Origin: Phycisphaerales bacterium
GTDB lineage: Bacteria; Planctomycetota; Phycisphaerae; Phycisphaerales; UBA1924
DNA: 64,000 nucleotides
Assembly: GCA_023382935.1 (NCBI GenBank)
Contig: JAHDXL010000005.1
Coordinates: 53,717-117,716, forward strand
Direction: 5' to 3'
The notes below the pieces were generated by a model. That model ran no database searches. It saw only the letters and a list, made by a program, of their open reading frames with translations, and was not told the origin of the DNA. Positions 1 to 18,917 of this stretch are shown here, piece after piece (position 1 is the first letter of the stretch; each line of letters begins with the position of its first letter). The translations under genes were made by a program, and so were the position numbers.

Positions 1-45
1 CTGGCGTCCAAGGCCAAGGATTCGGGAGGTGGCGGCAATGGCTGA
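1..45 (+). CDS. 3' end of an upstream ORF; by position possibly tssB/vipA (small sheath subunit)
   Basis: Frame 1 is open from the window edge (LASKAKDSGGGGNG*). Its TGA (43-45) overlaps the tssC ATG (ATGGCTGA). TssB normally precedes TssC. Only 14 codons are visible, so identity is positional inference only. Confidence 0.3.
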   Translation: MASKAKDSGGGGNG

Positions 46-1534
46 GAACCCTGAGATGCAGGCACAGGCCGGCCCGGCCGAGACCATGCAGGAGGGCGAG
101 TTTGCCGCTCTCCTGGAGGGCAACTTCAAGCCCAAGTCCGATCGGCAGCGTGAGGCGATCGAAGAGGGCGTGCAGACGCTGGCTGCGCAGGCGCTGTCAA
201 ACACGGCCCTGGTCAGCGATGACGTGATCAAGACCATCGAGTCGATGATCGCCGAACTGGACCGCAAACTGTCGGAGCAGATCAACCTGATCCTGCATCA
301 CCCCGACTTTCAGGCTCTGGAAGGCACCTGGCGCGGTCTGCACCATCTGGTGAGCAACACCGAGACCGACGAGATGCTCAAGATCCGCGTCCTGAACATC
401 TCCAAGAAGGATCTCGGCAAGACCATCAAGAAATTCAAGGGCACCGCGTGGGACCAGAGCCCGCTGTTCAAGAAGATGTACGAAGAGGAGTTCGGCACCC
501 CGGGTGGCGAGCCGTATGGCTGCCTGGTTGGCGACTATCACTTTGACCATTCCCCGCCGGACGTGGAGATTCTCACGGGCATGGCCCAGATCGCCGCGGC
601 CGCTCACGCGCCCTTCATCGCCGGGGCCGACCCCAAGGTGATGAACATGGACTCGTGGCAGGAACTGTCCAACCCGCGCGACCTGACCAAGATCTTCGGC
701 AGTGCCGAATATGCCCCGTGGCGCAGTCTGCGCGAGAGCGAGGACTCCAAGTACATCGGGCTTGCCATGCCGCGATTCCTCTCTCGCCTCCCGTACGGAT
801 CCAAGACGGCTCCGGTCGAGGAGTTTGCCTTTGAAGAGGACACGGAAGGGGCGGACCACAGCAAGTACACCTGGGCCAACTCGTCGTTCGCGATGGCGGT
901 CAACATCAACAAGGCTTTCAAGATGTACGGCTGGTGCAGTCGCATCCGCGGCGTGGAGTCGGGCGGCATGGTCGAGGGGTTGCCTTGCCACACCTTCCCG
1001 ACCGACGACGGCGGGGTGGACATGAAGTGCCCCACCGAAATCGCCATCACCGATCGGCGCGAAGCGGAACTGGCCAAGAACGGGTTCATGCCGCTCAGCC
1101 ACTGGAAGAACACGGACTACGCGGTATTCGTGGGGGCCCAGAGTCTGCACAAGCCGGCTGAGTATTCCGATCCCGACGCAACGGCGAACGCCAACCTGGG
1201 CGCTCGCCTGCCGTATCTCTTTGCGACGTGTCGGTTTGCGCACTTCCTCAAGTGCATCGTGCGTGACAAGATCGGCTCGTTCAAGGAGCGGGCCGACATG
1301 GAACGCTGGCTCAACAACTGGATCATGCAGTACGTCGAGCCCGACCCCGCCAACGCGACCGAAGAGGCAAAGGCCCGGCGTCCGCTGGCCGCGGCCGAGG
1401 TCGTCGTCGAAGAGGTCGAGGGCAACCCGGGGTATTACTCCTCGAAGTTCTTCCTGCGTCCGCACTACCAGTTGGAAGGCCTGACTGTTTCGCTGCGGCT
1501 GGTCTCGAAACTGCCCTCTCAGAAGGGCGGGTGA
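38..1534 (+). CDS. tssC: Type VI secretion contractile sheath large subunit TssC (VipB/ImpC family)
   Basis: About 500-aa ORF with TssC-type motifs (PRFLSRLPYG, GFMPLSHWKNTDYAVF, SSKFFLRPHYQLEGL). GGAGG lies 8 nt before ATG 38; the ORF track starts at GTG 29. Sits in a T6SS gene context. Confidence 0.95.
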   Translation: MAENPEMQAQAGPAETMQEGEFAALLEGNFKPKSDRQREAIEEGVQTLAAQALSNTALVSDDVIKTIESMIAELDRKLSEQINLILHHPDFQALEGTWRGLHHLVSNTETDEMLKIRVLNISKKDLGKTIKKFKGTAWDQSPLFKKMYEEEFGTPGGEPYGCLVGDYHFDHSPPDVEILTGMAQIAAAAHAPFIAGADPKVMNMDSWQELSNPRDLTKIFGSAEYAPWRSLRESEDSKYIGLAMPRFLSRLPYGSKTAPVEEFAFEEDTEGADHSKYTWANSSFAMAVNINKAFKMYGWCSRIRGVESGGMVEGLPCHTFPTDDGGVDMKCPTEIAITDRREAELAKNGFMPLSHWKNTDYAVFVGAQSLHKPAEYSDPDATANANLGARLPYLFATCRFAHFLKCIVRDKIGSFKERADMERWLNNWIMQYVEPDPANATEEAKARRPLAAAEVVVEEVEGNPGYYSSKFFLRPHYQLEGLTVSLRLVSKLPSQKGG

Positions 1535-1721: not shown

Positions 1722-2222
1722 ATGGCATTCGACGGCTTCCTTCAGGTTCAGGGCATCAAGGGCGACAGCACGGACTCGGCACACAAGGATTGGATCGAGA
1801 TCCAGGCGTTCAGCCACGCGGTGACGCAGAGCACCGGCGGCGCCGCCAGCGCTCAGGGCACCCACGCGGGCGGCCGGGCCGACCATGCCGACTTCACCAT
1901 TGTCAAGCGCCTGGACACCGCTTCGTCTCCGTTGTTCTTGCACTGCTGCACGGCCAAGCCGATCCCCGAGATCAAGGTCCAACTCTGCCGCGCCATGGGC
2001 GAGAAGACCACGTTCATGGAGTACATCATGAAGGACGTGATCGTCTCGTCGATCCGCCCCTCGGGCTCGACCGAAGGTACTGACCTGATCCCGCTGGAAG
2101 AAGTCTCCTTCCGCTACGGCGAGATCCACCTGGCCTATACCCCGACCGACCCGCGCAGCGGCGGCAAGACTGGCCCGGCGGTCAAGGCGGCCTGGAGCAG
2201 CCTCGAGAATAAGCCCATCTGA
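1722..2222 (+). CDS. hcp: Type VI secretion tube protein Hcp (TssD)
   Basis: 166 aa. The N-terminus MAFDGFLQVQGIKGDSTDSAHKDWIEIQAFSH is the canonical Hcp1-family start. AGGAGA RBS lies upstream. Confidence 0.95.
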   Translation: MAFDGFLQVQGIKGDSTDSAHKDWIEIQAFSHAVTQSTGGAASAQGTHAGGRADHADFTIVKRLDTASSPLFLHCCTAKPIPEIKVQLCRAMGEKTTFMEYIMKDVIVSSIRPSGSTEGTDLIPLEEVSFRYGEIHLAYTPTDPRSGGKTGPAVKAAWSSLENKPI

Positions 2223-2248: not shown

Positions 2249-2283
2249 GCCGGCAGTGGGCCACCGCCCGCTGCCGGTTTTTT
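2249..2283 (+). terminator. Intrinsic terminator after hcp
   Basis: CCGGCAG (2250-2256) pairs with CTGCCGG (2271-2277), with inner GGG/CCC pairing. Followed by TTTTTT (2278-2283). Confidence 0.6.
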
Positions 2284-2321
2284 CGCTCCAGATCGTGGGA
2301 AGCACGTGGGGAGGTGGTGTC

Positions 2322-3173
2322 ATGGGTGCGCCTGCCAGATCAGCCGAAGAAATGCTCCGCGCGGGGCGCGTGTCCGATGCGATGTCTGCACTGCGGGAGT
2401 CGATTCGTTCCGACCCGTCGGATCCGAAAAAGCGCCTGTTTCTCTTTCAACTCAACTGCGTGCAGGGAGAGTGGGACAAGGCGCTCAACCAACTCAACGT
2501 GGCGGCCGAACTCGACCCCGGGGTGCAATTGATGGCCCGCGTTGGTCGGGCGGCCATCCAGTGCGAAGTGTTCCGGCAGGAGGTTTTCGCCGGCAAGCGT
2601 TCGCCCCTGCTGCTTGGCGAGCCAGAGCCGTGGGTCGGGATGATGCTCCAGGCGATGCAACTGTCCGGGCAGGGCAGGCACGGGCCTGCGGCCGAGTTGC
2701 GCACCCAGGCGTTTGAGAAGGCTCAGGCCCTTCCGGGCACGCTGACGGTCTCGGAGGGGGAAGTCGGCACGCCGCACAAGTTTGAGTGGCTGGCCGACGC
2801 GGACGAGCGCCTAGGCCCGATGATCGAGGCGATCGTGGAAGGGAAATACTACTGGGTGCCGTTTTCGCACATCCGTGCGATCTATCTCGAGCCTCCCAGC
2901 GACCTGCGTGACCTGGTCTGGGCGCCGGCGACGTTCCGCTGGGCCAACGGCGGTGAGATGGTTGGGCTGATTCCCACCCGTTATCCCGGCTCTGAGCGTT
3001 CGCCGGACGGGGCGATTGCTCTGGCCCGCAAGACCGATTTCAACGAGGTGGCGTCTGACACGTTTGAGCCTCTGGGCCAGCGCATGTGGGCGACCGACAT
3101 GGGTGAATATCCTGTGCTCCAGACCAGGCGCATCGAGATCGATCATCCCGACGGACCTGTGACCAATGGCTGA
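2322..3173 (+). CDS. tagJ: T6SS accessory protein TagJ (ImpE/SciE family)
   Basis: TPR-like N-terminal half and an ImpE-type C-terminus (YYWVPFSHIRAIYLEPPSDLRDLVWAPA, IPTRYPGS). GGGAGG lies 7 nt before ATG 2322; the ORF track starts at 2256. The stop overlaps the tssE start. Confidence 0.75.
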   Translation: MGAPARSAEEMLRAGRVSDAMSALRESIRSDPSDPKKRLFLFQLNCVQGEWDKALNQLNVAAELDPGVQLMARVGRAAIQCEVFRQEVFAGKRSPLLLGEPEPWVGMMLQAMQLSGQGRHGPAAELRTQAFEKAQALPGTLTVSEGEVGTPHKFEWLADADERLGPMIEAIVEGKYYWVPFSHIRAIYLEPPSDLRDLVWAPATFRWANGGEMVGLIPTRYPGSERSPDGAIALARKTDFNEVASDTFEPLGQRMWATDMGEYPVLQTRRIEIDHPDGPVTNG

Positions 3174-3672
3174 GTTGACCCCATCCGACCGGCTCCAGCC
3201 CTGCCTGCTCGACCGCCTGACCGACGACGAGCCGGACAAGCAATCGGAGAGCCGCAATCGCCGGGTGTTTTCGCTCCGGCAGATCCGCGAGGCGGTGCTG
3301 CGCGACCTTTCGTGGCTGCTCAATACGCCGGCGCGCTCGGCAACGGAAGACTTCTCGCTCTTCCCAGAGGTCGAGAAGTCGGTGCTCAACTACGGGATTG
3401 CAGACCTCGCGGGCCTGACGGCCTCGGGCGTCAACCTGAGCCAGCTCGAGGTCATGGTGGCGCGTGCCATCGAGCGCTACGAGCCGCGCGTGCTGCCCAA
3501 CACGGTCAAGGTGCGGGCGGTGGTCAGCAAGGACCAGACGGAGCGCAACACGCTGGCGTTTGAGATTTCAGGCGATCTCTGGGCCGAGCCGGTGCCCGAT
3601 CCGCTGTACCTGAAGACCGAACTGGACCTGGAAACCGGTCAGTGCACGCTGCGGGAGAGAGTCGGTGGATGA
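3166..3672 (+). CDS. tssE: T6SS baseplate subunit TssE (gp25-like)
   Basis: 168 aa. Canonical start MAELTPSDRLQPCLLDRLTDDEP. ATGGCTGA overlap with tagJ. Confidence 0.9.
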   Translation: MAELTPSDRLQPCLLDRLTDDEPDKQSESRNRRVFSLRQIREAVLRDLSWLLNTPARSATEDFSLFPEVEKSVLNYGIADLAGLTASGVNLSQLEVMVARAIERYEPRVLPNTVKVRAVVSKDQTERNTLAFEISGDLWAEPVPDPLYLKTELDLETGQCTLRERVGG

Positions 3673-5539
3673 ACGGCTGAAGCGCTATTACGAGCGTGAG
3701 TTGCGCCACGTGCGCGAGTCGGCCGGGGAGTTCGCCCGCGAGTTTCCCAAGATCGCGGCGCGCCTCAGTCTCGACGAGATGTCGTGCGCCGACCCCTACG
3801 TCGAGCGTCTGCTCGAGGGGTTTGCGTTTCTGTCGGCTCGTGTGCAACTTAAACTCGACGCCGAGTTTCCGCGCTTCACGCAGCACATGCTCGAGAGCGT
3901 CTATCCGCACTATCTGTGCCCCACGCCCTCGATGCTGGTTGCCCAGTTCAAGCCCGATCTGGAAGACAGCGGGCTGGCCAGTGGATTTGACGTGCCTCGT
4001 GGCACTGTCCTGCGCAGCAACATCGGCAAGGAAGATCAGACCGCCTGCGAATATCGCACTGCCCACGCGGTCAAACTCTTCCCGCTCGAACTCTTCGAGG
4101 CCCAGTATCACGACCGCGATCTGGCCAGCCTCGGGCTGCCGAACATTCCCGGCGTGCGGGCGGCCATCCGATTCCGTTTGCGCGCCACCGCCGGGCTTTC
4201 GCTGGCCGAGATTGCGCTGGACCGTCTGCCCATTTTCATCCGCGGGGTCGGCGACGTGGCGGTGCGCATCTACGAGCAGGTCTTTGCACACGGGCTTGGC
4301 GTGGTGGTGCGGCCAACCACCAAGCCGGCCAAGTGGCACCATCACATTCCGCAGAAGCGCGTGCGTCAACTGGGCTTTGAGCCCGAGGAGGCGCTGCTCC
4401 CGCCCGGCCCGCGCAGTTTCGACGGGTATCGCCACCTCCACGAATACTTCACCTTCCCCGAGCGATTCCTGGCGTTCGAGGTCGGCGGGCTGCGCGAGGC
4501 GATGCAGCGCGCCGACCAGACACAGATCGAACTGGTCATACTGCTCAAGCAACCCGACGTGGAACTGGAAAACGGCATTGACGCCGAGAACCTGCTGCTG
4601 CACTGCACACCGGCGATCAACCTGTTCGAGAAGCGGGCCGACCGCATCCACATTTCCGACAAGTTTCCCGAGTTTCAACTGGTGCCCGATCGCACACGTC
4701 CGCTCGATTACGAGGTCTACGACGTGCTCGACGTCACTGGCTTCGGCACCACGGCCGACGAGGAGACACGCTTCCGCCCGTTCTACGCCGCGACCGACTA
4801 TGACGAAGGCTCGCAGGCGGCTGGGGCCTACTACGCAACCAATCGCGTGCCTCGTGTGCTCTCGGCCAAGGAACGCCGCCTGGGGCGTCGCTCGCGGTAC
4901 ACGGGCAGCGAGGTCTACCTGTCGCTGGTCGATGCGCACAACGCGCCGTTCAAGTCGGACCTGAGGCAGATCGGCGCCACCACGCGCTGCACCAATCGCG
5001 ATCTGCCGCTGCGGATGCCGGTGGGGGTCGGCCGCACCGACTTCACGACCGAGGCCGGCGCCGCCGTCGAGTCGGTTCGTTGCGTTGCCGGCCCGACTCC
5101 GCCGCAGTCATCGGTGGCCGAAGGCGAGACCGCCTGGCGACTGATCAGCCACCTGTCGCTCAACTATCTCTCACTGGCCGACGAGGATGAAGTTCGCGGC
5201 GCCGGCGCGCTGCGCGAACTGCTCGCTCTTTACGGCGACCTGTCCAACTCGGCCATACGCAAGCAGATCGAGGGGGTGCGCAAGGTTGGCGCCCGCCCGG
5301 TGACGCGCCGCGTGCCGGTTCCCGGCCCCATCGCCTTCGCCCGCGGGCTGGAGGTCGCGGTGACGCTGGAGGACGCTGCGTTTCAGGGCTCGGGCCCGTT
5401 CCTGCTGGGCGCGGTGCTCGAACGCTTCTTTGCCAAGTACGTCTCGCTCAACTCGTTTGTCGAAACCTGTATCAACACCACGGAGCGTGGGGAGATCATG
5501 CGATGGCCGACGCGCATCGGTCTGAGACATACGCTCTGA
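3665..5539 (+). CDS. tssF: T6SS baseplate subunit TssF
   Basis: 624 aa. Canonical N-terminus MDERLKRYYERELRHVRESAGEFAREFPKIAARL. GTGGATGA overlap with the tssE stop. Confidence 0.93.
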   Translation: MDERLKRYYERELRHVRESAGEFAREFPKIAARLSLDEMSCADPYVERLLEGFAFLSARVQLKLDAEFPRFTQHMLESVYPHYLCPTPSMLVAQFKPDLEDSGLASGFDVPRGTVLRSNIGKEDQTACEYRTAHAVKLFPLELFEAQYHDRDLASLGLPNIPGVRAAIRFRLRATAGLSLAEIALDRLPIFIRGVGDVAVRIYEQVFAHGLGVVVRPTTKPAKWHHHIPQKRVRQLGFEPEEALLPPGPRSFDGYRHLHEYFTFPERFLAFEVGGLREAMQRADQTQIELVILLKQPDVELENGIDAENLLLHCTPAINLFEKRADRIHISDKFPEFQLVPDRTRPLDYEVYDVLDVTGFGTTADEETRFRPFYAATDYDEGSQAAGAYYATNRVPRVLSAKERRLGRRSRYTGSEVYLSLVDAHNAPFKSDLRQIGATTRCTNRDLPLRMPVGVGRTDFTTEAGAAVESVRCVAGPTPPQSSVAEGETAWRLISHLSLNYLSLADEDEVRGAGALRELLALYGDLSNSAIRKQIEGVRKVGARPVTRRVPVPGPIAFARGLEVAVTLEDAAFQGSGPFLLGAVLERFFAKYVSLNSFVETCINTTERGEIMRWPTRIGLRHTL

Positions 5540-6531
5540 TCCTGCGGCTGATGGAGAAGCCGTACGCCTTCGACTTCTTCCAGGCGGTGCGGCGGCTCGA
5601 CTGCGCGCGAACGGGCGGAGAGCCGATCGGCATCTCCACCCGCCTGAAGATGGACCCGGTGCGCTTCGCACAGAAGGTCAGCCTCGCCTTTGCGCCGTCC
5701 ACCATCGCCGGCGTCGACAAGCCGGTGGAAGGTTCCGCTCCGCGATTTGCCGTGAACTTCTTCGGGCTGCTCGGGCCAAACGGGCCCATGCCGCTGCACC
5801 TGACCGAGTACGTTCACGAGCGCGAGCACAACTACCACGATCGCACGCTGGCGCGGTTCCTTGATATCTTCCACCACCGGATGATCTCGCTGTTCTACCG
5901 CGCCTGGGCTGTCAACCAGCCCACCGCCAGTTTCGACCGGGCATTGCAGGATCCGCTCAGCGATCGGGTGGGCGCCTACGTGGGCTCGATGGCCGGGCTG
6001 GGTTCGCCCGCGCTGCGGCAGCGCGATCGCGTCAGCGATCTGGCCAAACTGCACTACATCGGGCGGCTGGCCTGCCAGACCAGGAACGCCGAGGGGCTTG
6101 AAGCGATCATCGCCGACTACTTCAAGGTGCCCGCGAGCATCATCGAGTTTGTCGGGCACTGGATGGACCTGCCCGAGGACAGCCGATGCCGTCTCGGGCA
6201 GTCGCGCCACACCGGGACGCTCGGTTCGACCACCGTGGTCGGTTCGTCGATCTGGGAAGTACAGCAGAAGTTCCGCATCCGCATCGGGCCGGTGGGCCTG
6301 CGGGCCTACGAGCGGTTCCTGCCGACCGGGCGCAGTTTCGGGCGTCTGGTCGATTGGGTTCGCAATTACGTGAGTTTCGAGTATCGTTGGGACGCCCAGT
6401 TGGTGCTCGATCGTCGCGAGGTGCCGCAGACGCGCCTCGGGCGGGCGGGACGACTGGGCTGGACGACCTGGCTGTGCACCCGGCCTCTGGAGCGTGATCC
6501 GGACGACCTGGTGCTCACGCCGCCGGAATAG
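5503..6531 (+). CDS. tssG: T6SS baseplate subunit TssG
   Basis: 342 aa. Contains the YAFDFFQAVRRLD motif typical of TssG. The start overlaps the tssF 3' end by 37 nt. Confidence 0.9.
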   Translation: MADAHRSETYALILRLMEKPYAFDFFQAVRRLDCARTGGEPIGISTRLKMDPVRFAQKVSLAFAPSTIAGVDKPVEGSAPRFAVNFFGLLGPNGPMPLHLTEYVHEREHNYHDRTLARFLDIFHHRMISLFYRAWAVNQPTASFDRALQDPLSDRVGAYVGSMAGLGSPALRQRDRVSDLAKLHYIGRLACQTRNAEGLEAIIADYFKVPASIIEFVGHWMDLPEDSRCRLGQSRHTGTLGSTTVVGSSIWEVQQKFRIRIGPVGLRAYERFLPTGRSFGRLVDWVRNYVSFEYRWDAQLVLDRREVPQTRLGRAGRLGWTTWLCTRPLERDPDDLVLTPPE

Positions 6532-6580
6532 TCTGTGCCGCGCCACGGCACGGTGTGATGGGAAAGCGGGAGGCATCGTC

Positions 6581-9331
6581 ATGGCTGAGATCAGTCTCAA
6601 GTCGCTGTTCGGGAAGATGAACAGTTTGTGCTACAAGAGCGCGGAGAGCGCCACCGTGTTCTGCAAGATGCGGGGCAACCCCCGCGTCGACGTGGTCCAC
6701 TTCATCCACCAGGTGCTGCAACTGCAGGACTCGGACCTGCACAAGATCATCCGCCACTTCCAACTCAATCCGGCCAGACTGGCCTCCGATCTGACGGCGA
6801 CGCTTGATTCCGTGCAGCGGGGCGCGTCTTCGATCGCTGGATTCTCCAGCGACCTTGAGGAGGCCGTCGAGCGGGCCTGGGTCTACGGCAGCCTGATGTT
6901 CAACGAGCGTTCGATCCGCTCGGGACATCTGGTGGTTGGCATGCTCAAGACCAAGAGCCTCTCGCGTGCGCTCATCGGCATCAGTGAAGAGTTCGCCAAG
7001 ATCCGCGTCGACGAACTGTGCGATTCCTACGAGAAGATCCTCGGCGATTCGCCCGAGTCCAAACTTGCGGCCCGCGAGAGTGGGGGAGTGGGCGGCGGCG
7101 CCGTTCCAGGTGAGGCGTCCGGCGCCATGGCCCCGGCGGAAATGGGCAAGGAAGAGGCTCTCAAACGCTTCTGCCGCGACATGACCGAGGAAGCACGCTC
7201 AGGCAAGATCGACCCGATCGTCGGTCGCGACGAGGAAACCCGTCAGGTCATCGACATTCTCATGCGCCGGCGTCAGAACAACCCGGTGCTGGTCGGCGAA
7301 GCCGGCGTCGGCAAGACCGCCGTGGCCGAGGGATTCGCCCACAAGATCGTCGAGGGCGATGTACCTCCGCCGTTGCAGGGCGTGCGCCTGCTGGAACTCG
7401 ACGTCTCGGCTCTTCAGGCCGGGGCCAGCATGAAAGGTGAGTTCGAGCAGCGCCTCAAGCAGGTCATCGAAGAGGTGCAGGCCTCGACGAGGCCGACAAT
7501 CCTTTTCATTGACGAAGTTCACCGCCTGATTGGTGCCGGCGGGCAGGCGGGTACGGGTGATGCGGCCCAGTTGCTCAAGCCGGCGCTGGCACGCGGCCTG
7601 CTGCGCACCGTCGCCGCGACGACCTGGGCCGAGTACAAGAAGCACATCGAGAAGGACCCCGCGCTGACGCGGCGATTCCAGACGGTGCTGGTCGATGAGC
7701 CGGGCGAAGAGCGTGCCATCCTCATGATGCGCAAGGTGGCCGGCATCTTTGAGAAGCATCACAAGGTGCAGATTCTCGACGAGGCGATCGAGGCCGCCGT
7801 GCGCCTCAGCCACCGGTACATCCCCGCCCGCCAGTTGCCGGACAAGGCGGTGAGTCTGCTGGATACGGCCTCGGCGCGCGTGGCCATCGGGCAGCACGCC
7901 GTGCCGGCTGAGGTGGACGACACGCGCAAACGCATCCAGGCGCTCGAGACCGAGTCGCAGATCCTCGCCCGCGAGCAGGCGGTGGGCTTTCACCACGAGA
8001 AGCGCATGCAGGAAGTGGCCGAGCATATCCGGGCCGAGCAGGAGCGCCTCGCGTCGCTCGAATCCAACTGGCAGAGGGAAAAGGAACTGGTCGAGCGTGT
8101 GCTGGGGATTCGTGCCAGACTGCGTGGTCCGACCGGCGCCGAGCACGTCGAGGGCACCGGCTCCAAGGCCGAGGCCAGGGCCGGGGCGCAGGTTGCAGCC
8201 GAAGCCGCCGCTGCCGGCAAGTCGACGCTGAGCGATGCCGAACGGGCCGCGCTGGTGGCCGAACTCGACCAGGTAAAGAAGGAACTGGCCGAGTTGCAGG
8301 GCGACAAGCCGCTGATCATACCTGACTGCGACGCCAACGCCGTTGCGGCCGTTGTCGCCGACTGGACTGGCATCCCCGTCGGGCGCATGGTCAAGAACGA
8401 GATCCAGGCGATCCTGCAACTGGCCGATACGCTCAACAAGCGCGTCATCGGCCAGCGCCACGGGCTGGAGGCCATCGCCAAGCGCATCCAGACCAACCGC
8501 GCCAGCCTCGACAATCCCAACAAGCCGATCGGCGTGTTCATGCTCGCCGGGCCCTCGGGCGTCGGAAAGACCGAAACCGCTCTCGCCCTGGCCGAGGCGC
8601 TCTACGGCGGCGAGCAGAACGTCATCACCATCAACATGTCTGAGTTCCAGGAAGCGCACACCGTCTCGACGCTCAAGGGCGCCCCTCCCGGGTACGTGGG
8701 ATACGGAGAGGGTGGTGTGCTGACCGAGGCCGTCCGGCGCAAGCCCTACTCGGTCGTTCTCCTTGACGAGGTCGAGAAGGCCCACCCCGACGTTCACGAG
8801 ATTTTCTTCCAGGTCTTCGATAAGGGGAACATGGAGGACGGCGAGGGTCGGCACATCGACTTCAAGAACACGGTCATTCTCCTCACCACCAATGTGGGCA
8901 CCGAACTGATTATGAACATGTGTAAGGATCCCGACCTGATGCCTTCGGTGGAGGGGCTTCAGAAGTCCTTGCGCGAGCCGATGCTCAAGGTTTTCCCGGC
9001 CGCGCTGCTGGGGCGCATCACGGTCATCCCGTATTTCCCGCTCGACGACAAGATGCTCAAGGAAATCGCCCGCCTGCAGTTGGGACGCATCCAGAAGCGC
9101 ATCAGCCAGAACCACGGGGCCCGTTTCGACTATGGCGAAGACGTGCTCGACCTGATCGTCAGCCGGTGCACCGAGATCGAGTCCGGCGGCCGCATGATCG
9201 ATGCCATCCTGACTCAGACCATGCTTCCGGAGATTTCGACCGCCTTCCTGAACCGGATGATGGAGGGTCGAACCATCGAGCGGGTGCAGGTGCATGTGGG
9301 AGACAACGAGTTCCGCTATGCCTTTGAGTGA
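6581..9331 (+). CDS. clpV: T6SS AAA+ ATPase ClpV (TssH)
   Basis: ClpV-type N-domain ([27 protein letters not shown]) and two AAA+ modules (Walker A GEAGVGKT and GPSGVGKT). Start taken at ATG 6581 after GGGAGG; the ORF track start 6494 lies inside tssG. Confidence 0.93.
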
Positions 9332-9396
9332 GCGGCGGGCGCGGTTGTCGCTTGAGAACTGGGTCCAGACGGGTTCCGGAAAGGACGAGGCTGTCG

Positions 9397-10218
9397 ATGT
9401 CGCTGCGACGAACACCCGGGGTCATCTGCCAATGCCAGTCGGGGACTGGGATTGATGGTGGGACCAACGCCCTGACGCTGTCGGGGCTGCCGGGTCCGAC
9501 CACCGACCTGATGAGCGCTCAGGCTGCGGCGAGGGCGATTTACGCCTCGGTGTCCAACCAGAGCCCGGTGTGCATGGATTGGGACGCCATCCGGGGAGCC
9601 GGGCAGTTGGCCCGGGCCGCGACCGCGTCCATGATTGAGTCGAACCTGCAACTATCGCTCGAGCAGGCGGTCTACGGCTTTGCCGTGCGCCAGGTGGCCG
9701 AGCAGTACCTCGATGTTCGGGAAACTGGCGGCGACAACCGGGGCGAAGAGGTCGAGGCGATGCTCGAGGGTGCCGGCGGCTCGGCGGGCATGTCGTGGTG
9801 CGCAGCCTTCGTCTCGCACTGCCACGTCGAGGCCGCCGCCCTGCTGTGCGCCGGCACGACCTGCCCGCGCACGCTCAGCGCGGTGATGATGGTCTTTCAC
9901 GGGCGCACTGCGGGCAACCTCACGTTCAGCAAGGCAAGCGTCCTGTCGGGCGCCATCATGCCCTTTGCCGGCGACGTGTTCTCGATGGTGCACCAGGGCC
10001 CGGTCAGTTCGCTCGACCCGGGCCGGCCTGCGCAGTTTCGCCGCGGGCATACCGGTATCGTCATCAGTTACAACGCGGCGACGCAAACGCTCACCACCAT
10101 CGAAGGCAACACCAATGAGGGTGGCGGACGCGAAGGCAATGGCGTGTACCTTCGCACCGACCGCATGCGCAGCGCCCGCCTGTGGGGCTTCATGCGTCCA
10201 CGCATCGTCTGGTTCTAG
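9397..10218 (+). CDS. CHAP/NlpC-P60-superfamily peptidoglycan amidase-like protein, no signal peptide
   Basis: Catalytic-type motifs in the usual order: MSWCAAFVSHC (Cys), RRGHTGIVISY (His), TTIEGNTNEG. Resembles CHAP / TIGR02594-like hydrolases. Start uncertain (ATG 9397; alternatives 9511 and 9631). Stop lies 11 nt before vgrG. Confidence 0.7.
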   Translation: MSLRRTPGVICQCQSGTGIDGGTNALTLSGLPGPTTDLMSAQAAARAIYASVSNQSPVCMDWDAIRGAGQLARAATASMIESNLQLSLEQAVYGFAVRQVAEQYLDVRETGGDNRGEEVEAMLEGAGGSAGMSWCAAFVSHCHVEAAALLCAGTTCPRTLSAVMMVFHGRTAGNLTFSKASVLSGAIMPFAGDVFSMVHQGPVSSLDPGRPAQFRRGHTGIVISYNAATQTLTTIEGNTNEGGGREGNGVYLRTDRMRSARLWGFMRPRIVWF

Positions 10219-10229
10219 GAGACACACCC

Positions 10230-12350
10230 ATGCCCGCTGGACTGCGGACTCAGGCAAACCGGACCATCGCCATCAACACACCCCTCGGTGCGGACAAGGT
10301 GGCCATTCAGTCCATCCGCGGGCAGGAGGAACTCGGGCGCCTGTTTCAGTACGAACTCGAACTGCTCAGCGAAGACGACACGCTCGTCTTCGAGGAACTG
10401 CTCGGGCAGAACGTCACCGTCCGTGTCGGCATTGGCTCGGGACCGGACGTGCGCTACATCAACGGATACATCAGCCGAATCTCTCAGCATGAGTATCGTG
10501 CCGGGCTGGCGGTCTATCGTGCCACGCTTGTTCCGTGGCTGTGGTTCCTCACCCGCCAGTCCGACTGTCGCATCTACCAGGAGATGACCTTCCCGGACAT
10601 CGTCAAGTCGGTGTGCAAGGAACTTGGTTTCACCGACATCAAGGATCAACTCGCGAGCACCTACCAGTCTCGAGACTTCTGCGTGCAGTACCGCGAGACC
10701 ACGTTCAATTTCGTCTCGCGTCTGATGGAGCAGGAGGGCATCTACTACTACTTCGCCCACGAGAACGGCAAACACGAACTCGTCCTGTGCGACGCGCCCG
10801 ACGCCCACGCCGCTCTGGCCACCGGGCTTGAAATCCCTTTCTATCCGCCCGACGGAAGCAAACGCAACGAGCAACACATTCGCGGCTGGACCGTGCAGAA
10901 GCAGATCCAGTCGCTCAAGTACGAACTGGCCGATTTCGACTTTGAGAAGCCCAACGCACCGGTCGTGAGCAACTCGCAGCAGCAGCGCGACCACGCGACC
11001 GGCCCGTGGGAGGCCATGTACGACTACCCCGGCGAGTACGTCACCGGGGAGGAGGCTCAGCACTTTTCGACCATCCGGCTCCAGGAGTTGCAGGCCCGAT
11101 ATGAGCAGATCAGCGGACAGGCCGATCATCGTGGCATTGTCGTCGGTGGCCGCTTCAAACTGACGCTGCCCGCCAAGGGCATGCGCCCCGACCAGGAGCG
11201 CGAGTACGTCGTGACGTCGACGAGTCTCCAGGCCTCGCAGGATTTGTTCGGCTCGGGCGGCGACGCGGGTAGCGAAGACCTCTTCTCGATCGCCTTCACG
11301 GTCATTCCCGCGACCGAGCACTTCCGCCCGGCTCGCACCACGCCCAAGCCCCTGATCCAGGGTCCGCAGACCGCCATCGTCGCAGGAAAGGACGGTGAGG
11401 AAATCTGGACCGACGAGTATGGGCGCGTCAAGGTGCAGTTTCACTGGGACCGCTACTCGGCCGGCGATGAGAAGAGTTCCTGCTGGTGCCGCGTGAGCCA
11501 GAACTGGGCGGGCAAGCGCTGGGGCGCCATGTTCATGCCGCGCATCGGGCAGGAGGTCATCGTCGAGTTTCTCGAGGGAGACCCCGATCGCCCAATCATC
11601 ACGGGGCGCGTCTACAACGGGCAGAACATGCCGCCCTACAAGCCCACCGAGATGGGAACCGTGAGCACCATCAAGAGCAACACCTCCAAAGGGGGGGCGG
11701 GCTTCAATGAGATCCGCTTCGAGGACAAGAAGGACGAGGAGCAGGTCTTCATCCACGCCCAGAAGAACATGGATGTCCGCGTGCTCAACGACCGCTTCGA
11801 GACCGTCGTGCACGATCGACACCTCGTCGTCGAGAACGACAAGTTCGAACACGTCAAGCACGACCGGCACCTGGTGGTGGACAACGATCGATTTGAACAC
11901 ATCAAGCGCGACGTGAACATCACGGTGGACGGCAAGCATGCCGAGGCCGTCTCCGGTTCCTATTCGCAGAAGGTCACCGGCGACGTGGCCGAGGTGTACG
12001 AGGCCAACCAGTCCACTGAGATCACCGACGACCTCTACATCAAGGCGAAAAACATCTGCTTCGAGGCCGTGGAGAACATCACCATCAAGGTCGGGAAGAC
12101 CAGCATCGCTCTGGAGACGACCGGGGTGGGGCTTGCAACCAAGGGCGACATCAAGGCCGAGGCGACCAAGAACATTGAACTCAAGGCCACCACCGAGTTC
12201 AAGGCCGAGGGTACCGCCGGCGTCGACGTGAAGGGTGCCAAGGTCGACGTGAAGGCCGACGGGATGGCAACCTTCGAGGGCACCGGTCCCACCACGGTCA
12301 AGAGCGCCGCGATCCTCACCGTGCAGGGCTCGCTGGTCAAGATCAACTGA
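10230..12350 (+). CDS. vgrG: T6SS spike protein VgrG (TssI)
   Basis: 706 aa. Canonical start (AINTPLGADKVAIQSIRGQEELGRLFQYELELLSED), gp27/gp5 core (RVSQNWAGKRWGAMFMPRIGQEVIVEFLEGDPDRPIITGRVYN) and C-terminal beta-helix repeats. AGGAG RBS before ATG 10230. No C-terminal effector extension. Confidence 0.95.
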   Translation: MPAGLRTQANRTIAINTPLGADKVAIQSIRGQEELGRLFQYELELLSEDDTLVFEELLGQNVTVRVGIGSGPDVRYINGYISRISQHEYRAGLAVYRATLVPWLWFLTRQSDCRIYQEMTFPDIVKSVCKELGFTDIKDQLASTYQSRDFCVQYRETTFNFVSRLMEQEGIYYYFAHENGKHELVLCDAPDAHAALATGLEIPFYPPDGSKRNEQHIRGWTVQKQIQSLKYELADFDFEKPNAPVVSNSQQQRDHATGPWEAMYDYPGEYVTGEEAQHFSTIRLQELQARYEQISGQADHRGIVVGGRFKLTLPAKGMRPDQEREYVVTSTSLQASQDLFGSGGDAGSEDLFSIAFTVIPATEHFRPARTTPKPLIQGPQTAIVAGKDGEEIWTDEYGRVKVQFHWDRYSAGDEKSSCWCRVSQNWAGKRWGAMFMPRIGQEVIVEFLEGDPDRPIITGRVYNGQNMPPYKPTEMGTVSTIKSNTSKGGAGFNEIRFEDKKDEEQVFIHAQKNMDVRVLNDRFETVVHDRHLVVENDKFEHVKHDRHLVVDNDRFEHIKRDVNITVDGKHAEAVSGSYSQKVTGDVAEVYEANQSTEITDDLYIKAKNICFEAVENITIKVGKTSIALETTGVGLATKGDIKAEATKNIELKATTEFKAEGTAGVDVKGAKVDVKADGMATFEGTGPTTVKSAAILTVQGSLVKIN

Positions 12351-12359
12351 GGTGTCTGC

Positions 12360-12794
12360 ATGAACCCCAAAGACGGAAAATCCTGTTCGCTTGTCGAACC
12401 GGGTGAAGCGACGGAAGCGACCGACGCCGACACCGCCGACCCCGGAAAGGTCTCGCAGATCAAGGCCCGCGAGCGCGAGAACAAGGAAGGAAAATACGGC
12501 AAGGAGACTGTCGAGCCCTTCACGCCGGCCAACGAGCCCTACGACCCCGTCGAGACCAGTTGGATCGAGATCGAACTGGTTGACGAGTCCGACAAGCCGG
12601 TCGCCGGCGCGCAATACGAGGTCACGCTGTCCGACGGGCGCGTGGCATCGGGCATGCTCAACGGCGAAGGCTGGGCACGGCTCGAGGGCATCCCGCCGGG
12701 CACCTGCAGGATCTGCTTCCCGAAACTCGACGCCGAGGCGTGGGAGTTCATCGAGTCGGTTGACGAGAAGTATCCCGCCATTCAGGTTTCCTAG
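12360..12794 (+). CDS. Hypothetical protein: acidic disordered N-terminus plus carboxypeptidase-regulatory/transthyretin-like beta-sandwich
   Basis: Starts 9 nt after the vgrG stop. GC3-rich. C-terminal segment WIEIELVDESDKPVAGAQYEVTLSDGRVASGMLNGEGWARLEGIPPGTCRICF fits the CarboxypepD_reg-like pattern and is paralogous to a segment of the next ORF. Confidence 0.6.
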   Translation: MNPKDGKSCSLVEPGEATEATDADTADPGKVSQIKARERENKEGKYGKETVEPFTPANEPYDPVETSWIEIELVDESDKPVAGAQYEVTLSDGRVASGMLNGEGWARLEGIPPGTCRICFPKLDAEAWEFIESVDEKYPAIQVS

Positions 12795-12818
12795 GTCTGC
12801 ACACAGGACGATCCGAAA

Positions 12819-13433
12819 ATGCCCATCGATCACGTGGTCAGACATGGCGAATGCCTCCTGTCGATCAGCGACAGGTACGGCTTCTTCCCCGAGACGCTCT
12901 GGAACCACGCCGACAACCGCCAACTCAAGCAGCAGCGTGAGGATCCCAACGTCCTCCAGGCCGGCGATGTCGTTCATATTCCCGATCTGAACCGCAAGGA
13001 AGAAAGCAAACCTGACAAGCAGCGTCATCGCTTTCGCCGCAAGGGCGTGCCCGGCAAACTCAGGATCCGCCTTCTGGACAACGGCCAGCCGCGCGCCCAT
13101 GTGCCCTATCGCCTCGTCATCGACGGCCACATCATCGAGGCCCAGACCGACGGCGACGGCTTTGTCGAGCAGGATCTGCCCGCCAGCGCCAGCCAGGGTG
13201 AACTGATCGTTGACCGCGACGACGGCGGCACCGATCACTACCACTTCAACTTCGGCACGGTCGATCCGATCGACACCGAGGCCGGGCAGCGCCATCGCCT
13301 GCACGACCTGGGCTACGACACCACCGAGCACCCGGAAGCCATCCGCGCCTTCCAGCGCGATCACGATCTTGAGCCCAGCGGCCAGGCGGATGATCAGACC
13401 CTGTCCAAACTGCAGGAGATCTTCGGGCAATGA
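12819..13433 (+). CDS. LysM + beta-sandwich + PG_binding_1-like domain protein, no signal peptide
   Basis: N-terminal LysM-like segment (HVVRHGECLLSISDRYGF...LQAGDVVHIPD). Middle segment KLRIRLLDNGQPRAHVPYRLVIDGHIIEAQTDGDGFVEQDLP. C-terminal LGYDTTEHPEAIRAFQRDHDLEPSGQADDQTLSKL resembles a peptidoglycan-binding helical repeat. Confidence 0.75.
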   Translation: MPIDHVVRHGECLLSISDRYGFFPETLWNHADNRQLKQQREDPNVLQAGDVVHIPDLNRKEESKPDKQRHRFRRKGVPGKLRIRLLDNGQPRAHVPYRLVIDGHIIEAQTDGDGFVEQDLPASASQGELIVDRDDGGTDHYHFNFGTVDPIDTEAGQRHRLHDLGYDTTEHPEAIRAFQRDHDLEPSGQADDQTLSKLQEIFGQ

Positions 13434-13954
13434 GCGGAGTTGTCTCTTTCATCTCGCGACTCGTACAGTCCGCCACGGCGCACAACACGATCAATCTGCC
13501 GACGGTGCCGGTGACGTTCCAGCGATCGCCGGGCGTTCCGACGGCCAATGAGCGCGGCATCTCCGACATGGACTTCCGTGTCACCTCCCTGGGGTTTGTG
13601 CTTCAGACCGGTCGCACGCCGGCCAACGGCCGCATCGATGTCCGACTCGTCGGCGGGCGTGCCACGCTCCAGTTGCTGCACAACGGCAACCCCGTGGCCG
13701 AGTACGACATTCGTGTGCACACCGCCGCAGTCGAGCCCGACTCCACCATCAACGGCATCCAGCGTCGCCTGCGCATGCTCGGGTACCAACTCGGGCACGA
13801 GGGCGCCGGGAAGGACGGCATCACCAACACCATCACCAAACTCACCGATCGCGCCATCCAGGACTTTCAGATCGACCAGAAGGTCGCCTTCGATGGCAAG
13901 GTCGACGCGGGCACCACGACGAAGATCAACGACGCCGTGGCCGCGCTGCCCTGA
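13430..13954 (+). CDS. Hypothetical protein with C-terminal PG_binding_1-like domain, no signal peptide
   Basis: ATGA overlap with the previous ORF. C-terminus INGIQRRLRMLGYQLGHEGAGKDGITNTITKLTDRAIQDFQIDQKVAFDGKVDAGTTTKI fits the PG_binding_1 pattern. Confidence 0.65.
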   Translation: MSGVVSFISRLVQSATAHNTINLPTVPVTFQRSPGVPTANERGISDMDFRVTSLGFVLQTGRTPANGRIDVRLVGGRATLQLLHNGNPVAEYDIRVHTAAVEPDSTINGIQRRLRMLGYQLGHEGAGKDGITNTITKLTDRAIQDFQIDQKVAFDGKVDAGTTTKINDAVAALP

Positions 13955-13981
13955 TCGACGACACTGCGGAAAGACTCTCCC

Positions 13982-15154
13982 ATGATCCGGATCAACGTCG
14001 CACAGAACAAGCAGGTCATCGTGCCTCTGCGTTTCCGCCGCGCCAGCGATGCCGACGCCGAACGCGAGTTTCCGGAGATCGACGATCGCGGCTACGAAAT
14101 GGGCACCCGCGCGGGCACCTGGGGGCAGTCCACCGCCCGCGGGCCCATGGTCGGGCTGACCACCGGCTTCACCGTCACGCTGCGCGTCGTGCGCGAGGAC
14201 ATCGACGCCAATGCCCCCCTGTTCGCCAGGAGCACCGATACGGCCGTGGTCAAGATCATCGAACCGGCCAACGGCGGACCCATCCCGGCTTCGGGCGACT
14301 TCAAGATCAAGGGCGTCGCCGACTTTGCCAATCGTCCCGTTTCGGTGCAACTGCGGCTGGGCGGCATTGATGGGCCGGTGCTCGGCGAGATCGAGCCTCA
14401 CATCTTCACGCCCCGGAAGATCAAACTGGTCGTGCACAACATGCGCATCGACGACGCCACGGGTCAGGGTACCCGCGCCGCTCTCCCGATCGAAGACATG
14501 GCCGCCCGCGTCCGCGCCATCTGGTGGCCCGCGGGCCTCGACATGGATTACGACCCCGTCGCCCGCCCCGACAAGAACAACGACAGCACGCTCGCCAAGA
14601 AGGACGAGGTCAAACTCTTCGGCGGCGGCTTCGGCGAGGTGCCCGGGCTGCTCCGCCAGCACAGCGTGCTCGACGACAAGATCCACCTGTTCGTCATCAA
14701 CGCCTTCACGCCCAATCCGGCCACGCCCGACCTGACCACCGTTGGGCTGGGCGTCACGCCTGATCTTGCCACGCAACTCAACTGCCCCCCGGGCATCTTC
14801 GTCACCGCGAAGGACGTCGTGGGCGACCAGGCGGAAATTGAACTCCGCTCGCGCACCATCGCACACGAGATCGGGCACTTCCTCACGCTTGAGCACGTGC
14901 ACCGCAAGAACGCGACCGAGGCGGCCGGCGACACCTACTCGCGCCGCCATCTCATGTATCCGCTCTCGAACATCGTCGAGGAGGTCACGCCCCGCACGCT
15001 CACCAGCGAGCATCGCTTCAACGACAACGGGTATGGCGAGCAGGTGCGGGGCTGGATGCTCACGCTCAAGAACCTCGATCATCACGACACCGACGATGAA
15101 GTCGCCAAGGCGCGCAAGCGTGCCCAGGCCGTGCAGGGAGGCAAGTGGAGTTGA
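13982..15154 (+). CDS. Metzincin (matrixin-like) zinc metalloprotease, no signal peptide; candidate T6SS effector
   Basis: HEIGHFLTLEH (HExxHxxxxxH, three His ligands) followed about 20 aa later by a Met-turn HLMYP (compare ALMYP of MMPs). About 280 aa of N-terminal Ig-like and catalytic-domain sequence. Same operon as vgrG. Confidence 0.75.
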   Translation: MIRINVAQNKQVIVPLRFRRASDADAEREFPEIDDRGYEMGTRAGTWGQSTARGPMVGLTTGFTVTLRVVREDIDANAPLFARSTDTAVVKIIEPANGGPIPASGDFKIKGVADFANRPVSVQLRLGGIDGPVLGEIEPHIFTPRKIKLVVHNMRIDDATGQGTRAALPIEDMAARVRAIWWPAGLDMDYDPVARPDKNNDSTLAKKDEVKLFGGGFGEVPGLLRQHSVLDDKIHLFVINAFTPNPATPDLTTVGLGVTPDLATQLNCPPGIFVTAKDVVGDQAEIELRSRTIAHEIGHFLTLEHVHRKNATEAAGDTYSRRHLMYPLSNIVEEVTPRTLTSEHRFNDNGYGEQVRGWMLTLKNLDHHDTDDEVAKARKRAQAVQGGKWS

Positions 15155-15226
15155 CGCGACCGTTGGCCTCCGGCGGAAGGCCCCGGCCATCTGCGAGTTG
15201 TCCGACCCGCCCTTGCGGAGATACCG

Positions 15227-16003
15227 ATGGACACCAGGGAACTCACCACGCTCATCCGCGCCGGGCACGACGATCGCGCCATCGACGTCGCCCGCGCCTC
15301 CGGCCCGCCCGCCTTCAACCAGGTTGAGGCGCTGCTGGCCGACCCATCGCCGCAGGTTCGTGCCATCACGTTGCGCGTCCTCGACGCGGCCGATCCGCGG
15401 CGGGCTCATCCCTTGGCCCTCAAGGCCCTCTCCGACCCGAGCGATGAAGTCCGGACGTTCGCCGTCGCGGTGCTCCGCCCCAATCCCCCCTCCGGCCACG
15501 CCTCCGAGTTGCTCGCCGCCTACAACACCTCCCATGACCCCGCACTGAGGGCCGAGATCGCGCTGCTGGCCGGGCGCGTCCAGCCACCCGAAGCGATCGA
15601 CACCTGGCGCGCCGTCTGGGCCCGCGAGGACGACCGCTACGCCAAGGCCGACGTGTGCAAGGCCCTGGCGCGCATGGGCGACCAGCCCGCCCGCGACGCC
15701 TACGTCGCCGACATGAAGCGACAGCGCGGCCGCCCCGTCTTCGATCTCATCCGCGGCACGGCCTACTTCCAGAACACCTGGGTGGTCCCCGCGCTGGCCC
15801 AGATGCTCGATCGCAAGGACGTGGCCCTGCACCTGGCCCCGGACTTCCCGGACACGCACCCCTTCCGCGTCTGCGACGTGGCGCTGGAGGCCATCCTCAC
15901 ACTCACCGGGGAGAAGGTCGAGTTCCAGGTGCCGCGCCCGACCCAGTACGCCGAGTCCGAGATCGCCACGGTCCGGGGCATCGCGCGCAGGTACGGGCCC
16001 TGA
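15227..16003 (+). CDS. HEAT-repeat protein; candidate cognate immunity/partner of the preceding protease
   Basis: Repeated HEAT/PBS-lyase-like units ([42 protein letters not shown]). GCGGAG RBS. Last gene before the C-tract. Confidence 0.75.
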
Positions 16004-16104
16004 CCCCCGGCCCCCGGACCCCCGGCCCCCCGGCCCCCCGGCCCCCCGGACCCCCGGCCCCCCGGACCCCGGCCCCCCGGACCCCGGACCCCCCCCGGAC
16101 CCCC
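16004..16104. repeat. C-tract microsatellite: 13 runs of C4-C8 separated by GG or GGA
   Basis: Read directly. Starts on the first base after the TGA of the HEAT-repeat gene. The complementary strand carries 13 G-tracts. Confidence 0.9.
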
Positions 16105-16205
16105 GTAATTCCGGCTTGTCCCCGTCGGCCTGCACGCCTCGGCCGGACTCCGCTTTTTTTGGATGCACGCGCGCGCCGTGCCGCCCGTTCGGCCGCCCCA
16201 GCGCC

Positions 16206-16390
16206 CGTGCACGCCCTCCGGACAGCCGTGCCCGCCCGCCGTGCACGGTTTCACACCCTCTGGCAACCCGTGCACGCCCGCCGTGCACGGTTTCACACCC
16301 TCTGGCAACCCGTGCACGCCCGCCGTGCACGGCTTTCCGCCCGCCGGCAACCCGTGCACGCCCGCCGTGCACGGCTTTCCGCCCGCCGGG
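16206..16390. repeat. Tandem 42-bp repeat array carrying eight copies of the palindrome CGTGCACG
   Basis: Identical units at 16240-16281 and 16282-16323, a variant unit at 16324-16365 and a truncated fourth. Palindrome copies start at 16206, 16240, 16269, 16282, 16311, 16324, 16353 and 16366. Intergenic, upstream of glnN. Confidence 0.85.
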
Positions 16391-16706
16391 CAAGGGGGAT
16401 GGCGCCCGCCCGCGTCCGCCGCGACGGCGGCGATGGATCGGGTCGGGGCGCCATCCGTCGTCCACCTGTTCAAGCGTCCCTGAAACACTCGGCCTCGGTG
16501 CTCGCGCACGCCGGCACGCCATATTTTGTGCCTCCCGTCTCCGGCCGCACTTGCCGAGGGCTCCGGGACTGCAAGAATCCATCCCGTTCGGGAACGTGCA
16601 AAATGGGCATGGATCGGAGAGAAGCGCTCTCCGTCTGCAATCACCCCACGTTTGGGTGCCATGTTTCGGTGTTTTTGGACCTCGCACGCTGAAAGGGAAT
16701 CGATCG

Positions 16707-18917
<2,211 letters not shown>

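Follow-up and report, generated by a model that had tools for sequence, protein, structure and literature searches.

Candidate spike-tip loading adaptors with cell-wall-binding folds in a type VI secretion operon of a Phycisphaerales bacterium

The stretch of DNA analysed here (the window; 64,000 nt, positions 53,717-117,716 of contig JAHDXL010000005.1 from Phycisphaerales bacterium GCA_023382935.1) begins with a plus-strand operon for a type VI secretion system (T6SS) of subtype i (T6SSi), which fills its first 16 kb and in which the spike gene vgrG is followed by five tightly packed genes, named here as open reading frames (ORF) 1 to 5 (Table 1). Comparative sequence analysis suggests, with a probability of roughly 60%, that ORF1, ORF2 and ORF3 are secreted adaptors ("co-effectors") for loading at the spike tip, which would tether ORF4, the presumed toxin, to VgrG, with ORF5 as the putative cytoplasmic immunity protein.

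Fusions to expelled proteins and the split spike domain ORF1

Homologs of ORF1 or ORF2 occur fused to VgrG, PAAR and Hcp, each of which the T6SS expels. An exhaustive profile search with the ORF2 family among 1.84 billion representatives returned 3,347 clusters (50% identity) at E<=1e-30, and architectures were derived from the top 150. Among these, three proteins (P0196, P0230 and P0268) join PAAR, ORF1 and ORF2 in an order that matches the gene order in the window; in P0230, the ORF1 part shows 52% identity (E 4e-18) and the ORF2 part 40% identity (E 2e-47). In addition, P0221 is a fusion of Hcp with ORF2, P0144 carries ORF2 fused to Amidase_3 and to a second sandwich plus PG_binding_1, and several ORF2 forms have two LysM domains. 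The fusions to expelled proteins argue that ORF1 and ORF2 leave with the spike, which is, of the two roles offered by an earlier reading of the DNA (hereafter the sequence-only reading), the one that fits best.

The same fusions bear on a rival explanation, in which ORF2 and ORF3 act in the manner of DUF4123, DUF1795 and DUF2169 proteins, as chaperones or adaptors of the cytoplasm that stabilise the cargo and pass it to VgrG but are not themselves secreted and stay in the producer cell. Consistent with such a role, the genes lie between vgrG and the cargo gene, are cargo-specific and encode proteins without signal peptides. However, homologous modules are fused to PAAR, Hcp and VgrG and to a toxin, and likeness to known adaptor families is absent, with no match of ORF1, ORF2 or ORF3 to the three classical T6SS adaptor families named above at E<=1. 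A chaperone that remains behind is therefore considered improbable.

ORF1 is the C-terminal linker and transthyretin (TTR)-like domain that other VgrGs bear covalently, encoded here as a separate, translationally coupled gene. Its family comprises 42 members, and some relatives carry the JGI annotation VgrG. In the loci fetched for comparison (described below), the domain lies within the VgrG reading frame in 17 and forms a separate gene in 21, and in fragments P0111, P0121 and P0123 the end of the VgrG beta-helix continues straight into it. The 17 fused loci bear out the suggestion of the sequence-only reading that ORF1 is the free-standing form of a TTR-like domain borne by VgrG. In the window, VgrG ends in ...SLVKIN followed by TGA, without a TTR extension of its own and without DUF2345 above threshold. 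ORF1 starts in the vgrG frame three codons past this stop (VKIN*GVC-MNPKDGK; 12348-12362), with its own ATG and a GAGG Shine-Dalgarno sequence that overlaps the vgrG stop.

Programmed read-through of the vgrG TGA into ORF1 was considered and rejected. Across the 21 split loci, ORF1 is in frame with vgrG in 11 and out of frame in 10, the stop codons vary, and the gene has the ATG and GAGG just described. The variable stops, together with an in-frame arrangement in only 11 of 21, indicate a real gene split with translational coupling rather than obligatory read-through. Low-level read-through giving some fused VgrG-TTR protein is possible.

The model of ORF1 is confident only in the sandwich, where the predicted local distance difference test (pLDDT) score is ~90 and a WIEIELVDE strand is near-invariant; the N-terminal half contains the conserved motif ADPGK...GKYG. 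A CarboxypepD_reg/TTR-like pattern had been read from the sequence of ORF1, and this stood in part. The match to Pfam CarboxypepD_reg is below the cut-off (E 1e-3, 19.9 bits vs 32.3), whereas the modelled fold matches the CnaB/prealbumin type: Foldseek searches with the sandwich returned CnaB2, BcpA, dioxygenase sandwiches and, in third place, 6sjl_A, the TTR-bearing VgrG1 chain of enteroaggregative Escherichia coli (EAEC) in the VgrG-Tle1 complex, all at E 5e-3 or worse. ORF1 hence has the transthyretin/prealbumin-like fold of TTR internal adaptors, but in the window it is not covalently part of the VgrG C-terminus. The sandwich segment that ORF1 and ORF2 were said to have in common emerged again with hhalign, in the same 40 columns (probability 75.6%, E 2.4e-5), and a profile comparison of ORF1 with ORF3 gave no significant similarity (probability 1.6%).

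Domains, cargo and distribution of the ORF2 family

ORF2 is modelled as three domains, a LysM-like unit, an immunoglobulin (Ig)-like sandwich and a PG_binding_1 helical bundle, with a basic linker after the first. The expectation that ORF2 and ORF3 both end in PG_binding_1 was confirmed, as both scores exceed the Pfam cut-off of 23 bits (Table 1). Within the family, PG_binding_1 is matched by 34 of 36 members and Pfam LysM by 15 of 36 (best E 5.8e-7), with no Pfam LysM match to the window ORF2 itself at E<=1. Searched against the Protein Data Bank (PDB), the family profile finds LysM and PG_binding_1 structures of cell-wall hydrolases, the latter domain resembling those of amidases, CtpB and SleB, and the PHROG matches of ORF2 homologs are to endolysin and transglycosylase LysM domains. 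No structural relatives of the whole protein were found, the matches being per domain and with weak E-values.

The sequence-only reading had likened the opening domain of ORF2 to the LysM proteins of phage P2 (gpX) and of extracellular contractile injection systems (eCIS), and had offered a baseplate or tube-initiator role as its second option. The LysM fold itself holds, both in the model and in the 15 relatives, but it is of the endolysin/transglycosylase type and not the tail type. No gpX- or Afp7-type match was found for ORF2 in Pfam (E<=1), in PHROGs or by Foldseek against PDB and BFVD, and Phage_tail_X was likewise absent; the sole tail-type match is the LysM domain of a phage tail tube initiator (9g8s_T), at E 0.59 in the PDB profile search. 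The family was looked for in a sample of 151 genomes from the class and is present in 9 of 20 VgrG-positive and in 0 of 131 VgrG-negative genomes (Fisher p = 2e-9), with 0 to 5 copies per genome, usually within a few kb of vgrG. ORF2 is thus not a single-copy core gene, being missing from 11 of the 20 VgrG-positive genomes, present in up to five copies elsewhere and found also as orphan copies. A baseplate component like gpX of P2, gp53 of T4 or Afp7/Pvc7 of eCIS would agree with the LysM fold, the position beside the hub/spike gene, the lack of a signal peptide and the weak 9g8s_T match. However, the AlphaFold2 (AF2) model has no tube-fold domain, BFVD yields no tail LysM protein, and the copies vary in number, each with a different cargo, some in orphan cassettes far from T6SS genes. 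This option is consequently regarded as highly improbable.

Conservation within ORF2 is uneven. Mean pairwise identity is 0.55 in the LysM domain, 0.68 in the linker core, 0.38 in the sandwich and 0.41 in PG_binding_1, and the linker residues H70, F72, K75, G76 and P78 are invariant or nearly so. Since LysM and linker are the most conserved parts, the charges of ORF1 and of the linker region are opposed (-15 vs +9), and a parallel exists in Tae17-VgrG17 (see below), it is proposed that the constant half of ORF2, formed by LysM and the RHRFRRKGVP strand, docks on the acidic TTR domain of ORF1 through strand-to-strand and charge contacts. The variable half, formed by the sandwich and PG_binding_1, would hold the specific cargo ORF4 together with ORF3, and the whole VgrG-ORF1-ORF2-ORF3-cargo assembly would be expelled together with the spike. 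After delivery to the prey periplasm, these cell-wall-binding folds may either retain peptidoglycan binding or act as protein-protein modules alone. We infer binding of the TTR domain to the cargo or to its adaptor from synteny and from the PAAR-ORF1-ORF2 fusions; the contacts, secretion and toxicity of ORF1-ORF5 are all inferred.

ORF3 is a paralog of ORF2 that lacks the LysM domain. It is homologous to residues 88-203 of ORF2, covering sandwich and PG_binding_1 (hhalign probability 98.9%, E 3e-17), so the likeness between the two proteins exceeds the terminal helices. The ORF3 start overlaps the ORF2 stop (ATGA), and this -4 overlap is conserved across loci. ORF3 is always followed by an ORF4 homolog and is limited to loci with the ORF4/ORF5 pair.

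Relatives were sought in 185,579 species genomes, with a 14-sequence ORF2 alignment for the locus search, yielding 190 ORF2 relatives, and 77 loci were fetched. The order VgrG(-ORF1), ORF1, ORF2 recurs in ~38 loci from many phyla, and the unit ORF2-ORF3-ORF4-ORF5 occurs in ~20 loci of Planctomycetota, Acidobacteriota, Gemmatimonadota, Nitrospirota and Thermodesulfobacteriota. Members of the ORF2 family stand directly after VgrG/ORF1 or head orphan cassettes, and many loci contain two or three ORF2 paralogs, each with different downstream genes. In the 77 loci, 103 ORF2 homologs are followed by genes of ~60 unrelated families, mostly Pfam orphans whose products have 300-1750 amino acids (aa); some encode an LCAT/DUF676-type lipase, a C39-like peptidase, a metallophosphoesterase, a metallo-beta-lactamase (MBL) or an amidohydrolase. 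On the ORF2 tree, the downstream family changes 14 times (minimum 7, shuffled mean 30.4), and the host phylum 35 times (shuffled mean 46.6), a weaker fit than that of the cargo family. A cognate adaptor moving together with its cargo would be expected to produce such tracking of the downstream family by the ORF2 tree.

In the window genome (3.7 Mb, 35 contigs), vgrG and ORF2 each occur twice, and one PAAR gene lies elsewhere. The second ORF2 copy is an orphan far from any VgrG (G000:C2:380793-381413; locus L085, 9788-10474, minus strand), and the gene after it encodes 773 aa, with a Het-C-like domain and with PG_binding_1 at the C-terminus; the two likely form an effector cassette. No obvious immunity gene was seen in this cassette before the following OPT transporter. 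In loci L056 (9612-16905), L041 (7491-14093) and L049, ORF1-ORF2 pairs occur in tandem, two to three times, each with its own large downstream gene, and look like arrays of alternative units of TTR domain, handle and cargo. Locus L092 (5938-11739), on a metagenome contig or metagenome-assembled genome (MAG) labelled Colwellia sp., contains a complete module of VgrG, ORF1, ORF2, ORF3, a 389-aa protein and a HEAT protein, indicating either inter-phylum transfer of the whole module or mis-binning.

A second rival explanation takes ORF2 and ORF3 as cell-wall-targeting subunits of a peptidoglycan-directed toxin with several subunits, in which their LysM and PG_binding_1 domains would act in trans, binding the prey sacculus and positioning ORF4 on it, with VgrG docking as a secondary matter. 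It overlaps with the adaptor reading and does not exclude it. Several observations agree with cell-wall targeting, including the endolysin/transglycosylase type of the LysM matches, the resemblance of PG_binding_1 to amidase, CtpB and SleB domains, the joining of the module to Amidase_3 in P0144, and the PG_binding_1 domain that the orphan cargo of the same genome itself bears. However, the cargo is diverse and mostly not made of cell-wall enzymes (lipase, phosphoesterase, MBL and large orphans), and the best-conserved part of ORF2 would face the constant partner VgrG/ORF1 rather than the variable cargo. In addition, if ORF5 is the immunity protein, its lack of a signal peptide points to a toxin that acts in the cytoplasm, and such a target would argue against taking the peptidoglycan-binding folds simply as toxin-targeting domains. 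Cell-wall targeting as the main function is therefore judged unlikely, although it keeps an appreciable minor share of the probability.

The peptidoglycan-binding folds could also act in the producer, anchoring or remodelling peptidoglycan for T6SS assembly like TagL/TagN/TagP or TagX, as would befit such folds encoded in a T6SS operon. Against this stand the lack of a hydrolase domain, the co-variation with cargo rather than with core machinery, and the results of a crude hydropathy scan (not SignalP), in which ORF1-ORF5 showed no N-terminal or internal hydrophobic segment. Having no signal peptide or membrane segment, ORF1-ORF3 cannot reach the periplasm alone, and a producer-side role has very little credibility. 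The starting point of the sequence-only reading, signal-less proteins encoded in a T6SS operon, holds for ORF1, ORF2 and ORF3, and the three genes are real and conserved.

Several points weigh against the proposal of spike-tip adaptors. The toxin role of ORF4 and the immunity role of ORF5 are assigned solely from gene position and a weak HExxH match. The Foldseek E-values for the small ORF1 and ORF2 domains are weak, at 3e-3 or worse, which for ORF1 is due to the small size of the domain. Furthermore, in L093 (5890-8396) the gene next after vgrG is an ORF1 homolog, without an adjacent ORF2, and in L041 an ORF2 follows VgrG without ORF1, showing that contact between ORF1 and ORF2 is not obligatory; the lone TTR gene of L093 presumably serves cassettes encoded elsewhere.

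Presumed cargo and the surrounding operon

ORF4 gives weak M43, M10 and reprolysin matches over its HExxH region, with matches to ADAMTS catalytic domains at E 0.02-0.1, and the exact motif HExxHxxxxx[H/D] is kept in 12 of ~16 ORF4-type homologs in a length-selected set that was scanned. ORF5 is the conserved last gene of the cassette in ~20 loci.

Table 1. Genes of the T6SSi operon and domains of ORF2, in window coordinates
Feature	Position	Strand	Description and evidence
TssC	29-1534	+	
Hcp	1722-2222	+	
ImpE/TagJ	2256-3173	+	
TssE	3166-3672	+	
TssF	3665-5539	+	
TssG	5503-6531	+	
ClpV	~6578-9331	+	
CHAP/TIGR02594-like gene	9328-10218	+	Between clpV and vgrG; both matches sub-threshold (CHAP 23.6 bits vs 26)
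VgrG (spike)	10227-12350	+	TIGR03361 628 bits; Phage_GPD, Phage_base_V, Gp5_trimer_C
ORF1	12360-12794	+	144 aa, net charge -15; low-confidence N-terminal half, then transthyretin-like beta-sandwich at residues 66-120
ORF2	12819-13433	+	~205 aa, three domains; AF2 pLDDT 90, predicted template modelling score (pTM) 0.74
ORF2 residues 1-56, LysM-like	12819-12986	+	AF2 beta-alpha-alpha-beta unit 3-54; PDB profile matches 4uz2, 1e0g
ORF2 residues 57-78, basic linker	12987-13052	+	Near-invariant RHRFRRKGVP; net +9 over residues 57-86
ORF2 residues 79-146, six-strand Ig-like beta-sandwich	13053-13256	+	Model strands 79-144; Foldseek MG, usher, FN3-like
ORF2 residues 147-204 and stop, three-helix PG_binding_1	13257-13433	+	PF01471 27.3 bits vs cut-off 23; helices 154-202
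ORF3	13430-13954	+	174 aa; conserved 40-residue N-terminal segment, then sandwich and PG_binding_1 (PF01471 25.9 bits)
ORF4	13982-15154	+	390 aa; metzincin-like zinc peptidase, presumed cargo toxin; HEIGHFLTLEH at residue 295
ORF5	15227-16003	+	258 aa; HEAT-repeat, presumed cytoplasmic immunity protein; HEAT_2 E 8.8e-13; no hydrophobic N-terminus

A scan of 9000-16800 found no promoter-like site and two terminator-like sites, fewer than in shuffled sequence, one on the minus strand within vgrG and the other a weak plus-strand hairpin at 13583 within ORF3. The CHAP-like gene is kept in loci L005 and L025, and its product is a possible amidase effector or, alternatively, a possible cell-wall enzyme like TagX; its long N-terminus suggests that the true start lies further downstream. 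Between ORF5 and a type III glutamine synthetase gene lie two GC-rich tandem repeats (15998-16105 and 16210-16389), with an 8/16-nt unit CCCGGACC in ~12 copies and a 42-nt unit in ~4 copies.

The closest relatives of the locus are from Phycisphaerae-type planctomycete MAGs. The nearest of all (87-93% identity), L005 (RHKP01000012.1) and P0126, carry 'Cyanobacteria bacterium CYA' and 'Leptolyngbya sp. PLA3' as their deposited names; every other relative belongs to Phycisphaerae, so both names probably stem from errors of binning or naming with co-cultures.

Relation to known systems

To our knowledge, T6SS effector loading is understood almost solely in Proteobacteria. Against this background, it is an evenly balanced question whether the LysM-sandwich-PG_binding_1 protein represents a phylum-spanning 'cargo handle' like MIX, FIX and RIX, in which cell-wall-binding folds may have been exapted to dock a detachable TTR domain at the spike tip. 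If it does, the family would flag thousands of uncharacterised effectors, mostly Pfam orphans, in Planctomycetota, Acidobacteriota, Verrucomicrobiota, Myxococcota and other little-studied phyla. In phyla whose cargo is almost entirely without annotation, the ORF2 family provides a simple means of locating effector/immunity cassettes by sequence. The chain of VgrG or PAAR, TTR domain and LysM handle exists both split and fused, which makes it a natural system for the study of how interchangeable cargo is recruited to the spike tip, and allows asking whether the peptidoglycan-binding folds bind peptidoglycan after delivery or are pure protein connectors.

The sequence-only reading had called either role of such proteins unusual for a T6SSi, which was overstated, as publications already describe vgrG loci with LysM or PG_binding_1 proteins that stand alone, as well as docking of an Ig-like plus LysM module to the C-terminal region of VgrG (PMC10673891, PMC11796386). 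Wang et al. (2023) screened 130,825 vgrG loci and found LysM and PG_binding_1 among six domain families, stand-alone or fused (PMC10673891). In Ketobacter alkanivorans, the stand-alone LysM protein Kalk_10460 was required for co-immunoprecipitation of VgrG and effector, which it bridges; T6SS LysM domains grouped apart from those of eCIS and phages, and PG_binding_1 was stated to be limited to gammaproteobacteria (PMC10673891). In Acinetobacter baumannii, the N-terminal Ig-like and LysM module of Tae17 binds the C-terminal region of VgrG17, and an AlphaFold2 model supported by mutagenesis places the contact with the TTR domain in edge-to-edge strands and in salt bridges that join the negatively charged end of VgrG to the positively charged N-terminus of the effector (PMC11796386). 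Given these two studies, the class of spike-loading LysM/PG_binding_1 accessory proteins is already known. The literature search found no description of the fixed three-domain protein, its LysM-less paralog or the split TTR gene, nor of PAAR-TTR-handle and Hcp-handle fusions or a spread across non-proteobacterial phyla.

The ORF2 family shares with the accessory class of Wang et al. the LysM domain, the same-strand position between vgrG and toxin, the lack of a signal peptide and the occurrence both stand-alone and fused to VgrG or toxins. It differs in that a single protein unites both domains, on either side of an Ig-like sandwich, with a split TTR gene before it and a paralog lacking LysM after it, in that its hosts belong to Planctomycetota, Acidobacteriota, Verrucomicrobiota, Myxococcota and others, and in that its cargo consists mostly of proteins other than cell-wall enzymes. 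As in Tae17/VgrG17, the putative partners are a TTR domain at the spike end and an Ig-like sandwich with LysM on the cargo side, with a charged strand between domains and a negative spike end opposite a positive cargo module. However, there the toxin itself contains the module and VgrG the TTR domain, whereas here both are separate proteins, the order is LysM followed by sandwich, and PG_binding_1 is added.

Similarly, the DUF2345-TTR region of EAEC VgrG1, the adaptor for Tle1 (PDB 6SJL/6SK0), provides a transthyretin-like cargo dock at the spike C-terminus, but in the window VgrG has no such DUF2345, the TTR domain is a separate gene, and the cargo is probably bound via ORF2. The LysM proteins P2 gpX, T4 gp53 and Afp7/Pvc7 are likewise encoded next to a hub gene of the gpD/gp27 type within contractile injection systems; ORF2 shows no sequence or profile link to them, lacks a tube domain, varies in copy number, is linked to cargo and does not belong to the core. 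Tvp accessory complexes (PMC13373197) were considered as relatives and set aside, being DUF2169-based and unrelated. Finally, like MIX, FIX, RIX and the secreted adaptors termed 'tethers', the ORF2 family is a conserved module that marks polymorphic cargo cassettes, exists stand-alone or fused and moves with its cargo, whereas its fold is unrelated to theirs and derived from cell-wall-binding domains, and its distribution lies mainly outside Proteobacteria.

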